A stretch of 64,000 bases of DNA from Candidatus Iainarchaeum sp. (GCA_043808155.1 JAZDFD010000016.1:7604-71603); one strand, 5' to 3'; shown: positions 45,672 through 52,968, counted from the first letter of the stretch. Notes: generated by a model from the sequence alone, not told the origin. Made by a program: numbers and translations.

Positions 45672-46076
45672 ATGAGTGATGAATTAAAAGTTTCAAAAAA
45701 GAAAATAACATTAGCATTAGTGATTTTAGGAGCGTTAGTAATTGGTTTTGTTGCAGGAACATTTTTTGCACCAACTGCACCCGTTTCTGAAATTCAATCG
45801 CAAACATACAACTTAACAGAAGAAGATAAACAATTCCTTCGGAATTTAGCAAATACAGAAGTTTCAGCAATTATCTCCCAATCCGCTCAAACTGATTGGT
45901 GCACAGTAAATGGCGGAATATGGAATCAAAGCACAGACGAAGGTTTCTTTGAGATAAATAAAGAAATTTCAGATGAATTAAAATCACAAGGTGTTACAAT
46001 CACAGAAACCGAAGGCAAATATTTTGCACCAGTAAGTTTTGTAAAAAGAGACGGATGTATCATTCCAAAAAAGTGA
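45672..46076 (+). CDS. Small N-terminally anchored extracytoplasmic protein
   Basis: AGGTGAT SD; TM helix ITLALVILGALVIGFVAG; two Cys in the ectodomain. Confidence 0.5.
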   Translation: MSDELKVSKKKITLALVILGALVIGFVAGTFFAPTAPVSEIQSQTYNLTEEDKQFLRNLANTEVSAIISQSAQTDWCTVNGGIWNQSTDEGFFEINKEISDELKSQGVTITETEGKYFAPVSFVKRDGCIIPKK

Positions 46077-46080
46077 TTGA

Positions 46081-46857
46081 ATGAAAAAAATACTCCTGAT
46101 ATTTGGATTGCTTATTGTAATGAACTTTGCATTAACTGATGATTCAAATTCAGGAGGTACTAATTCACTCCCTGACTTTAATGTAGAGGATTACAACATC
46201 CCGGATTTCAATATCCCCGACTTAAATGTGTCCAATACAAACATCATTGACTTCAACATTCCAGATTTAAACATCATTAATCCAATCCTTGACTTAAATG
46301 CAATTGATTTCAATTCAATGTCTTTTGAATGCGAGTCACTTTCAATTTGTGATGAAAACACAATAATTTACTTCAATTGCTCTGATTTGAATATTTCAGA
46401 CTTAAACTGCATTTGGATAAATCAGTTAGATGATTTGAATTACACGCATTACCTTGCTCAAGATGCATGTATTGAAGACCAAGGTTATGAAATTGAAGAA
46501 ATTTCTGAAGATGGAAATGAAGAAGACACAAATGAATTGGAAGATGCAGCAACAACTGAAGACAAAACAGACAATTTAGAAAATGAAACATTAGACATTG
46601 AAGAAACAGCTGACAAAACTATAGATGATACGAACACATTAAACTGGCTATTAAACGGGATTTTAGAAATTATTGAAGAAACAATTGATACTTTTGTTGA
46701 CGAATTAATAACGCCCATTGTTGAAGCAATTTCAGGAGTTCCAGCACCAAAAGAATTCAAACTTGCAGAAAAAGACGTTCAGGTTGATGGAAAGTCTGCA
46801 AAATGCTTTGGAGTTGCATGTGATAGAATTCCAAAAAATTTAGGTGGTTCTGAATGA
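46081..46857 (+). CDS. Secreted acidic protein with DFNIPDLN-type short repeats
   Basis: Signal MKKILLIFGLLIVMNFAL, repeats DFNVEDYNIPDFNIPDLNVSNTNIIDFNIPDLNIINPILDLNAIDFN, and a D/E-rich centre. Confidence 0.5.
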   Translation: MKKILLIFGLLIVMNFALTDDSNSGGTNSLPDFNVEDYNIPDFNIPDLNVSNTNIIDFNIPDLNIINPILDLNAIDFNSMSFECESLSICDENTIIYFNCSDLNISDLNCIWINQLDDLNYTHYLAQDACIEDQGYEIEEISEDGNEEDTNELEDAATTEDKTDNLENETLDIEETADKTIDDTNTLNWLLNGILEIIEETIDTFVDELITPIVEAISGVPAPKEFKLAEKDVQVDGKSAKCFGVACDRIPKNLGGSE

Positions 46858-47171
46858 GGAAAGGACTAATAGTGTTGACATTGTTAGGTTTTCTTCTGTT
46901 TGGATGCTTACAAAATGCTCCTGAAAAATCAACTGATGAAAAAATATCAGAAGTCTTTAAAATAATGAGTGAAAAATATCCGAAGGATGAAATTCCGCAA
47001 ATCACATTAATTGAAAATGCAGATGAATTAAAATCACAACAGCAAGTAATTTACAAAAATGCAGAAAACGGAATGTTCATTGTGCAGTGGCCTGACTTGT
47101 TAGTAATTTATGATTATGAAAATCAAGAAGTTGTGCAAGAACTTGCAATAACAAATGTAAATTTAGGTTAG
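46854..47171 (+). CDS. Small lipobox-containing secreted protein
   Basis: MRKGLIVLTLLGFLLFGC signal. There is a 4-nt overlap with the upstream gene. Confidence 0.5.
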   Translation: MRKGLIVLTLLGFLLFGCLQNAPEKSTDEKISEVFKIMSEKYPKDEIPQITLIENADELKSQQQVIYKNAENGMFIVQWPDLLVIYDYENQEVVQELAITNVNLG

Positions 47172-47190
47172 TGTTTATTGAGTTGAATTA

Positions 47191-51630: not shown

Positions 51631-51719
51631 ATAATCGCCATCTTAACAAGTTCTTTTTTAAATTATTAAAGTTATTTTTTAATTTGATATTTAATTCAAT
51701 AAACTATTAACTGGTTAAT

Positions 51720-51805
51720 AAAACTTGCTATTATCTAAAACTTGCTATTATATTATGTCCAATTGGACATCTGGCTGAAATTCATTATTATGAAATTCAT
51801 TATTA
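51720..51805. promoter_or_regulatory. Regulatory region: two short tandem duplications flanking a 16-bp perfect palindrome
   Basis: aaaacttgctattat occurs twice (51720-51734, 51737-51751). atgtccaattggacat is at 51755-51770. gaaattcattatta occurs twice (51777-51790, 51792-51805). All lie upstream of the minus-strand gene starting at 51630. Confidence 0.55.
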
Positions 51806-51816
51806 AAATTACACAA

Positions 51817-52968
51817 CTAATTCATAAAAAATATGTATGCATAAATCCCTACTGCTGCAAGAATTAAAACAAAGCCAGCAATCACTTCCAGCTCAATTTT
51901 GGCGACCTCAAATGTCAATTTCGTGCCCTCACAATCAAAAGCACCATTATTTGATTCAATCTGGCATGCCAAATCAAAATTTCCTGCAACATCTGAAAAA
52001 ACCTGATAGTCAAAATAAACAACTTCATTGGGTCTCAAAACACCAATTTCCGTTGTTTCTTCACCAATTAAACCCAATGCAGAAGGTACCTTAAGAATCA
52101 ATTTAACATCTGAAATTGCTTCAGAACCGCTGTTTTTGACAATTGCACGTATTTTTGCATAATCTCCTACTTTTTTTATTGCTGATTCTTTGAAAATATA
52201 TGCGTCTATTGGATTTTCAGATGATTTAACTGTTATCTCGGGATAATTTGAAAGGATTTCAACTCTGCCGCCAAATTCATTCTCAAAATGCACTACTGCA
52301 GATGGCAAAGTAAAATGTGCAGCAATTGTTGGTTTTATAGTGTATTCCAGTGTGATTGACTCGCCTGCTGCAAGAACACCTTCCCAGTCACTCTCTCCTT
52401 TCAAAACATTAAAACTAGTCACTCCGATTTGTTCTTCAACAACAGGTCGGATGTGTTTTATCTGAATTTCTGCATCTTTGCTTCCTGAATTTTCCGCAGT
52501 TATTGTTATGTTTAATTCCTCACCTAGCATCAATTCAGTTTTTTCAACTTCTTTTATGAATTTTTCTTTTGGCAAATAGGCTGTTTCATAAAATCCAAAA
52601 TTACTTTCGTTATGTATAAGAACGTTACCGTAGTTGCAAATCTCAAGTTTATTATTTTCTTCTAAAAATTCCTGAAAATCAGAAATATACAAATGTTTAA
52701 CACAAATCCCGTTATCACAAACAAAATCTCTTTCATAAAACTGACCAATTACATGATTATTAAGTGTAACAGGCGTAAACCAATCCTCACCTATGGCTTC
52801 TACTTTCAGTTCTAAAACACCAATATTCTTAGAATCTTCAAAATCTGTGTCTGGGAGCACTAAAAATACAAAATTAGAGCATTTCTGCAATTCCTCCTGT
52901 GTACTAACTGAATTTATCAGTAAAATCATTAAAAACGTTGTAAACATAACTTTGGCTATGCTGTTCAT
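51817..52968 (-). CDS. Secreted CARDB-like beta-sandwich protein with C-terminal TM anchor
   Basis: Signal. Segments LGEELNITITAENSGSKDAEIQI and VGDYAKIRAIVKNSGSEAISDVKLIL are typical of CARDB/COG1361-type domains. C-terminal TM helix. Confidence 0.55.
   Translation of the reverse strand: MNSIAKVMFTTFLMILLINSVSTQEELQKCSNFVFLVLPDTDFEDSKNIGVLELKVEAIGEDWFTPVTLNNHVIGQFYERDFVCDNGICVKHLYISDFQEFLEENNKLEICNYGNVLIHNESNFGFYETAYLPKEKFIKEVEKTELMLGEELNITITAENSGSKDAEIQIKHIRPVVEEQIGVTSFNVLKGESDWEGVLAAGESITLEYTIKPTIAAHFTLPSAVVHFENEFGGRVEILSNYPEITVKSSENPIDAYIFKESAIKKVGDYAKIRAIVKNSGSEAISDVKLILKVPSALGLIGEETTEIGVLRPNEVVYFDYQVFSDVAGNFDLACQIESNNGAFDCEGTKLTFEVAKIELEVIAGFVLILAAVGIYAYIFFMN

Follow-up and report, generated by a model that had tools for sequence, protein, structure and literature searches.

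Exported-protein genes of a Candidatus Iainarchaeum genome as a likely mosaic of a core envelope gene pair, a fibre operon and a paired transglutaminase-like enzyme cassette

The window analysed here is a stretch of 64,000 nucleotides (nt) from Candidatus Iainarchaeum sp. (GCA_043808155.1; contig 16, 7604–71603). Between 38.4 and 53.0 kb it holds closely spaced genes for exported or membrane-anchored proteins, which a preliminary description had taken for a single cell-surface ensemble. We consider it likely that this region is instead a mosaic in which three unrelated gene units adjoin one another, and not one surface machine (Table 1). Unit A, the genes of a 1401-amino-acid (aa) and a 383-aa protein, is an old, order-wide, tail-to-tail pair of envelope genes located beside housekeeping genes (AK6, aCPSF1 and the proteasome beta subunit). 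Unit B, a fibre operon, and Unit C, a cassette of a 540-aa transglutaminase-like enzyme and a 213-aa partner, would be independent accessory units placed between the two Unit A genes. The source genome (1.08 Mb, 35 contigs, 88% complete) contributes archaeal, DPANN-like gene content to the window (aCPSF1, a proteasome beta subunit, an AK6-like kinase and AMMECR1; G+C ~0.34), and several window genes have their closest named relatives in metagenome-assembled genomes (MAGs) labelled Diapherotrites or Iainarchaeota. No tRNA or Rfam matches were found within the window.

The close relative L096 has exactly the gene order of the window, with 58 nt between the 383-aa and 1401-aa genes, and its proteins are 74% (383-aa), 84% (1401-aa) and 92% (aCPSF1) identical to those of the window. 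Comparison by blastn gave two aligned blocks (38389–42675 and 51814–56850) at ~84% identity, which in L096 are separated by ~36 nt, so that window positions 42676–51813 have no counterpart. Both the Unit A pair and the insertion are direct observations, and the 9.1 kb would have entered between the Unit A genes in the lineage of the source genome. The distance between the two genes in the window (9,161 nt) is the largest among the genomes compared, the distances in relatives being those between alignment ends and hence upper bounds. In G041 (locus L055, 7688–10234), the same slot is filled by a different gene, coding for an 848-aa secreted, C-terminally anchored adhesin-like protein. Because other relatives carry different surface-protein genes at this site, the slot behaves as variable and resembles a hot spot of surface-gene variation. 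Gaps of 2–3 kb are seen at the same slot in G025, G004 and G023. Signs of a mobile element were not found for the insert (no flanking repeats, no tRNA and no integrase among the open reading frames, ORFs), nor did it give informative PHROGs matches. Upstream of the enzyme gene and just inside the right end of the insertion lies a perfect 16-bp palindrome, ATGTCCAATTGGACAT, at 51755–51770; if this were an operator shared with other loci of the genome, the inserted cassette would be under a resident regulator. A second, small indel relative to L096 (~590 nt, window 37800–38388) lies between AMMECR1 and the 1401-aa gene and contains a 152-aa basic ORF (37900–38358).

The genes flanking the insertion are widely kept within the order. 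The same-order set comprised 61 genomes counting the source genome (60 relatives without it), and homologues were found in 48 of the 61 for the 1401-aa protein and in 54 of the 61 for the 383-aa protein, one in each genome except for two partial matches in G026. Both genes are present in 44 relatives; they share a contig in 37, lie at most 1 kb apart in 28, and are convergent in 26 of these 28. In all seven mapped loci of relatives, and also in L096, the 383-aa gene comes immediately after AK6, with the order psmB, aCPSF1, AK6, 383 kept in five of the seven (L051–L055). In the mapped loci the 1401-aa gene is on the strand opposite to the 383-aa gene, often followed by AMMECR1. The 383-aa gene belongs with the 1401-aa and AK6 genes as core genes of the order. 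This bears on the three minus-strand genes of the region, previously described as one group: the 540-aa and 213-aa genes do overlap by 4 nt, but the trio is not one operon, because the 383-aa gene overlaps the upstream AK6-like gene by 4 nt and lies 186 nt away from the 540-aa gene, with the insertion boundary (51813/51814) in that gap. The 383-aa protein scores above the Pfam gathering thresholds for DUF11 (26.9 vs 24.6), CARDB (25.8 vs 22.7), BatD (24.8 vs 24.1) and TRAP_beta (22.8 vs 22.4), in agreement with its earlier label of CARDB-like; the same label was not borne out for the 709-aa protein of Unit B, which gave no CARDB match and only sub-threshold matches to Ig-like Pfam families (Big_1, 21.8 vs 34.9 bits; Y_Y_Y; Big_7). 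No meaningful sequence relative of the 383-aa protein was found among solved structures and no Pfam family for the 1401-aa protein, and neither has a named homologue (the pair was seen in the window, L050–L056, L096 and L097). Together they may represent the principal, surface-layer-like envelope protein and the protein that anchors it.

Units B and C have distributions of their own. Loci with the enzyme were collected from species-representative genomes with two peptide patterns (38 loci, a sample and not a census), and the linkage of Unit C was followed by six-frame profile searches of these loci. In other genomes with the enzyme, its gene travels only with the gene of the 213-aa partner, and never with the fibre module, the 383-aa gene or the 1401-aa gene; when the enzyme loci of relatives were searched by tblastn with all window proteins, nothing but the enzyme and its partner matched. 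The enzyme is in turn absent from the relatives that have the fibre module. The preliminary description had proposed a single surface system extending from 38.4 to 53.0 kb, with the enzyme acting on the fibre or the surface layer by cross-linking or proteolytic maturation; the CARDB-like proteins would be further possible targets. This proposal can point to products that are all exported or anchored, to tightly packed, convergent genes, and to an enzyme with an intact catalytic triad that faces outward. It conflicts with the occurrence of the enzyme and partner without the remaining genes in every other genome examined, with the lack of the enzyme in fibre-module genomes, and with a 383/1401 pair that is directly adjoining in relatives, L096 included. 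Co-conservation had been set beforehand as the check on a single ensemble, and the enzyme, the fibre module and the 383/1401 pair are not kept together across relatives. As a conserved system the proposal is largely refuted, and we regard it as very improbable overall; what connects the enzyme with maturation of the fibre is solely the position of its gene in the source genome. Several points nevertheless weigh against our interpretation of three units and the roles assigned to them. The location of the enzyme beside the fibre operon in the source genome could reflect a local functional link, and arrival of the insert in one event or in two is equally compatible with the evidence. The Pfam transglutaminase models stay below their cut-offs on the 540-aa protein (Transglut_core2, 15.5 vs 23.5 bits; Transglut_core, 15.1 vs 23), and the role of membrane socket considered below for the accessory proteins of the fibre is a guess from synteny and topology.

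The pairing of the 540-aa and 213-aa genes defines Unit C. Seven neighbourhoods were inspected by hand (two Diapherotrites MAGs, Thermococcus sp. SY098, Thermofilum, a Micrarchaeota MAG, Pyrofollis japonicus and one further archaeon), and all seven have a same-strand gene of 199–241 codons directly 3' of the enzyme gene, within flanks that differ from one to another (ribosomal genes, toxin–antitoxin pairs, transporters). The downstream proteins are homologous to the 213-aa protein (48–52% identity in DPANN, 30% in Thermococcus). All 29 archaeal loci of sufficient length (Thermococcus, Thermoproteota and DPANN) have the partner 3–90 nt downstream, four more loci ending at a contig edge, and the split gene order also occurs in two bacterial loci. 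Five bacterial loci (Planctomycetaceae, Kiritimatiellae) have a single ORF of 659–748 codons with the partner domain before the enzyme. A word-based homologue search with the 213-aa protein returned two proteins only and a profile search was needed, which when run exhaustively gave 210 cluster representatives. Among all proteins collected, 85 carry both domains in the order partner, enzyme; the groups with fusions are Planctomycetota, Kiritimatiellota, Aerophobetes and Omnitrophica.

In the fused protein P0098, residues 24–185 match the partner profile (98% probability) and residues 176–607 correspond to the enzyme beginning at its residue 23, just past the anchor helix; split and fused partner domains match each other in hhalign at 99.7% probability. 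The fusion removes exactly the C-terminal helix of the partner and the N-terminal helix of the enzyme, which is expected of two helices that are neighbours in a complex. Considering that the bacterial fusion occurs at the anchor-helix point of the enzyme, we infer from sequences and models that the archaeal 540-aa and 213-aa proteins form one complex, with their membrane helices next to each other. In the model of the fused protein P0088 (predicted local distance difference test, pLDDT, 85.1; predicted TM-score, pTM, 0.67), the partner domain is rich in beta structure and has two helices. Its fold had no clear Foldseek match on the fused model, where Tsi3 (3wa5_B; target-normalised TM-score, TMt, 0.70) may align to either beta domain, and searches by sequence with the 213-aa protein gave no meaningful match in Pfam or among solved structures. 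A duplicated enzyme domain as the origin of the partner was rejected (hhalign probability <1% against each of the three enzyme domains).

The family tree contains the Thermococcaceae, the Desulfurococcales with Pyrodictiaceae, and a clade in which Thermoprotei, Geothermarchaeales and DPANN are mixed, with the bacterial forms outside; the window enzyme sits with two Diapherotrites MAGs (100/100 support). Some bacterial forms are tandem-duplicated, with two fused genes side by side, and others have two C-terminal PsbP-like domains (L091 from Planctomycetaceae; P0082, P0100, P0113 and P0120). A contig labelled uncultured Gammaproteobacteria (L066) may be misbinned, because it carries a split, archaeal-type cassette placed among DPANN and Geothermarchaeales in the tree. 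In Thermococcus sp. SY098 (L006, 10225–16079), a 50-aa ORF comes after the cassette, and next to it a gene for a 1901-aa NosD/beta-helix surface protein.

The 540-aa protein is predicted to consist of a transmembrane (TM) segment (residues 7–27), a beta-sandwich (39–158), the catalytic core (177–350), a disordered linker (378–397) and a PsbP-like domain (400–540). Full-length homologues at 40–63% identity occur in DPANN MAGs, Thermococcus, Thermofilum, Pyrofollis, Infirmifilum and other Thermoproteota, many of them labelled 'cysteine protease' at NCBI. Cys269, His295 and Glu312 are invariant in 25 split homologues, as are Arg259, Asp260, Asp271 and Thr314, and the equivalent triad (Cys424, His450, Glu466) is invariant in 37 fused proteins. 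In the AlphaFold2 model (pLDDT 82.3), an anchor helix (7–27), an alpha/beta core and a C-terminal alpha/beta domain are seen; Cys269 starts helix 269–282, His295 starts strand 295–301 and Glu312 follows strand 308–310. Foldseek matched the core to 3kd4_A (E 3.4e-5), 3hlz (E 4.4e-5, 18% identity), the transglutaminase TG3 (8oxv_A, E 1.2e-3) and protein 4.2, with low TM-scores since only one domain aligns. Judging from the alignments and the model, the transglutaminase-like core appears real and complete. The preliminary description had expected Asp as the third catalytic residue; the fold and a complete, invariant triad were found as anticipated, but the third residue is Glu. The geometry of the Cys269-His295-Glu312 triad would follow from sequence, predicted secondary structure and the conservation in fusions.

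The likeness to the transglutaminase-like superfamily (PF01841, PF13369, PF04473; 3kd4, 3hlz) comprises the G-T-C motif with Cys at a helix start, the G-H-A-F histidine strand, an acidic residue ~17 positions past His, and the fold match. The 540-aa family differs in its invariant Glu, in Pfam scores that are all under cut-off, DUF553 among them (14.2 vs 20.5 bits), and in an arrangement of TM segment, beta-sandwich, core and PsbP-like domain with an obligate partner gene for which no described family was found. The sub-threshold transglutaminase matches fall at residues 235–307; homologues of the catalytic core and of the partner likewise reached no Pfam threshold, and the 540-aa protein has no meaningful sequence relative among solved structures. 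Residues 400–540 resemble PsbP, CyanoP, DcrB, LpqN and Eag chaperones such as SciW in fold (Foldseek TMt 0.6–0.73; 0.70–0.73 to PsbP and CyanoP). No Pfam match was obtained for this domain itself, and the fused homologue P0088 passes PsbP_2 (PF18933; 37 vs a cut-off of 27 bits). By analogy, the domain may bind peptide or protein; it differs from the known PsbP/Mog1-fold domains in being tethered by a disordered linker to a catalytic core on what would be the archaeal cell surface.

Based on these features, the 540-aa protein would be held by its N-terminal helix and would display the beta-sandwich, the Cys-His-Glu core and, on a flexible linker, the PsbP-like domain outside the cell, next to an exported 213-aa protein held by its C-terminal helix. 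We take the pair for a probable two-subunit surface hydrolase, in which the partner might act as a gate, chaperone or substrate adaptor. Prokaryotic members of the transglutaminase fold are mostly hydrolases rather than cross-linkers. For this reason, and because the triad is intact and invariant, we favour with some confidence a surface hydrolase, protease or isopeptidase acting on envelope proteins, while a cross-linking transglutaminase is less likely and, in our view, unlikely. No literature on this archaeal enzyme family and no characterised member was found. Strict dependence of a transglutaminase-like cysteine protease on a small, dedicated partner has a precedent in eukaryotes, namely Vasohibin with SVBP (PMC4866520, PMC6937246). 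Vasohibin is a cytosolic tubulin carboxypeptidase whose triad is Cys-His-Ser and whose partner is a short helix; in the cassette the partner is a beta-rich anchored domain, and no sequence relationship was found. LapG (BTLCP, peptidase C93), with LapA/LapD and the related Dvh system (PMC13090378), is likewise an extracytoplasmic transglutaminase-fold cysteine enzyme, and the 540-aa gene lies near a large adhesin gene in the source genome. It may serve as a useful working analogy for the cutting of anchored surface proteins, and not as the family of the 540-aa enzyme: nine window proteins gave no BTLCP (E <= 0.1) or LapD-type Pfam match, the linkage to an adhesin is absent in all other genomes, the source organism lacks an outer membrane or type I secretion context, and the enzyme is itself membrane-anchored with a fixed partner.

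The strict pairing would suit a dedicated substrate as well as a subunit, and the 213-aa protein could then be a substrate or detachable pro-domain that is cut or attached in order to release or install a surface factor. The N-terminal place of the partner domain in fused proteins is the usual one for a pro-domain, and cleavage of a partner with its own anchor would free a soluble domain. We regard this as rather improbable, given that the partner is predicted to be folded and beta-rich (pLDDT ~80–95; pTM 0.67 for the whole fused chain), that no cleavage-type linker is evidently conserved, and that the residues conserved in split and fused partners, mainly Gly, Pro, Trp and Tyr, look structural. 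A cassette devoted to conflict or defence, cleaving viral attachment proteins, shedding receptors or attacking competitors and spread patchily by horizontal transfer, has a lower probability still. Such a role would fit an orthologue in only two of the 60 same-order relatives, toxin–antitoxin genes that flank the cassette in Pyrofollis and other archaea, and the high conservation across phyla noted above. The best NCBIfam match of the enzyme is the N-terminal transglutaminase-like region of the 'anti-phage protein ProA' (NF058533, E 1.7e-15); its score of 55.6 bits compares with a cut-off of 1500, however, and the match covers profile positions 110–320 of 1903 (enzyme residues 181–365), that is, the shared catalytic domain only. 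The ProA model also matches weakly in seven of 14 control genomes, and no literature on ProA was found. Neither PADLOC nor, for either gene, PHROGs gave a match, and no relative was found on viral contigs. As the tree broadly tracks the major taxa (Thermococcaceae; Desulfurococcales with Pyrodictiaceae; DPANN), much of the history of the cassette would be vertical. Equally improbable in our estimate is a more specific form of the surface-enzyme reading, namely that the pair is an unrecognised archaeal two-subunit, membrane-tethered sheddase or sortase-like transamidase of the transglutaminase fold, found in Thermococcus, Pyrodictium, Pyrobaculum and DPANN and, as a single chain, in several phyla of bacteria, which was captured beside the fibre operon to trim or release the fibre.

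Unit B is recognised by its synteny in relatives, and its function is proposed from that synteny. Residues 7–479 of the window fibre are 63% identical to a 2404-aa fibre of G003 and residues 4–508 are 36% identical to a 911-aa protein of G042; the C-termini, or heads, of the three are unrelated. The families of the 134-aa, 258-aa and 105-aa proteins and of the N-terminus of the 709-aa protein occur in the same order, whole or in part, in G051, G042, G057, G036 and G003, and in part in G022. They directly follow the 2404-aa fibre gene in G003 and are preceded by genes of fibre-like or giant surface proteins in relatives where upstream sequence is available. The preliminary description had seen in these genes a possible attachment or assembly module, and the conserved synteny behind the fibre makes a role in fibre attachment or assembly reasonable. 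The accessory proteins might be a membrane socket or assembly factors that grip the conserved end of the fibre. Alignments of the small proteins revealed conserved Cys pairs and motifs in each, such as DKNFL, DWC..GG.W and a C-terminal C[IL] in the 134-aa family and NGM..W.DLL.IYD in the 105-aa family; nothing meaningful was found in Pfam for the 134-, 258- and 105-aa proteins. The 709-aa protein has a module-specific N-terminus (~1–90), Ig-like domains, a Cys motif, a Gly run, a TM segment at 524–542 and then a predicted cytoplasmic coiled tail of ~165 residues. Its conservation in relatives is limited to residues ~1–215, of which 84–200 form an Ig-like domain common to many giant surface proteins. 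The motif CGNGxC...CPxDC (window 47710–47770) is not specific to the locus, being present in five ORFs of the source genome (other contigs C10, C14, C23 and C26), and appears from its sequence to be a small disulfide module without a Pfam family. Numerous surface proteins of relatives have it too, as matches to residues 170–215 of the 709-aa protein. The adhesive MAT fibres of Bdellovibrio (PMC10769870) may be comparable to the window fibre, a secreted fibre that likewise combines a conserved N-terminus or shaft with a binding head that varies. To our knowledge, the description of MAT fibres does not include the 134/258/105/709 accessory families.

Apart from the CARDB label of the 709-aa protein and the minus-strand operon, the observations on which the preliminary description was built were reproduced. 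All seven ORFs from 45672 to 52968 are found at the positions and on the strands reported (Table 1), and the plus-strand genes are spaced as described, with 17 nt after the fibre gene followed by a 4-nt gap, a 4-nt overlap and a 19-nt gap. The DFNIPDLN-type repeats, the lipobox LLFGC, the motif CGNGTCDTGEDSTSCPADC and the residues SGTCIDTALFF...GHAFPVV of the enzyme were recovered. In a Kyte-Doolittle hydropathy scan, every product has a hydrophobic segment at the N-terminus, a TM segment at the C-terminus or both, and a Pfam scan found no ATPase, secretin or pilin among them.

Table 1. Location of the insertion and of the genes discussed, in window coordinates
Feature	Coordinates	Strand	Remarks or evidence
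Core envelope gene, 1401 aa, lipobox and C-terminal TM segment	38450..42655	+	Left flank of insertion
Insertion relative to the close relative L096, with fibre operon and enzyme cassette inside	42676..51813		9,138 nt; blastn empty-site comparison
Fibre/adhesin gene, 955 aa, conserved N-terminal half, variable C-terminal head	42787..45654	+	Comparison with G003 and G042
N-terminally anchored accessory protein, 134 aa	45672..46076	+	In 7/60 same-order relatives; synteny with 258/105/709 families
Secreted acidic D/N-repeat protein, 258 aa, conserved C-terminal AKCFG..C box	46081..46857	+	Alignment, synteny
Lipobox mini-protein, 105 aa	46854..47171	+	Same position in G051 (47% identity) and G036 (39%)
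Predicted type I membrane protein, 709 aa	47191..49320	+	Alignment, TM scan
Partner, 213 aa, signal peptide, predicted beta-rich domain of ~150 aa without Pfam family, C-terminal TM segment	49370..50011	-	Profile searches, hhalign
Predicted membrane-anchored transglutaminase-fold enzyme, 540 aa	50008..51630	-	Alignment, AlphaFold2 model, Foldseek
Region upstream of enzyme cassette, right end of insertion	51631..51816	-	186 nt; perfect 16-bp palindrome
Core envelope gene, 383 aa, DUF11/CARDB/TRAP-beta-like, signal peptide and C-terminal TM segment	51817..52968	-	Right flank of insertion
AK6/Fap7-like kinase gene, cytoplasmic product	52965..53477	-	4-nt overlap with 383-aa gene

The region is a cautionary case, in that a cluster of exported genes in a DPANN genome should not by itself be read as a system, and the clean empty-site comparison reveals a variable slot between two core envelope genes. 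The four small proteins that travel with the adhesion fibre are candidates for the mounting of such fibres on the membrane of host-dependent archaea. The analysis also defines a strictly paired, uncharacterised archaeal surface enzyme, for which the bacterial fusion is strong evidence that both parts work as one unit. The cassette is carried by cultivable Thermococcus species, among them T. barophilus, for which genetic tools exist, so that the function of the pair would be directly testable there.

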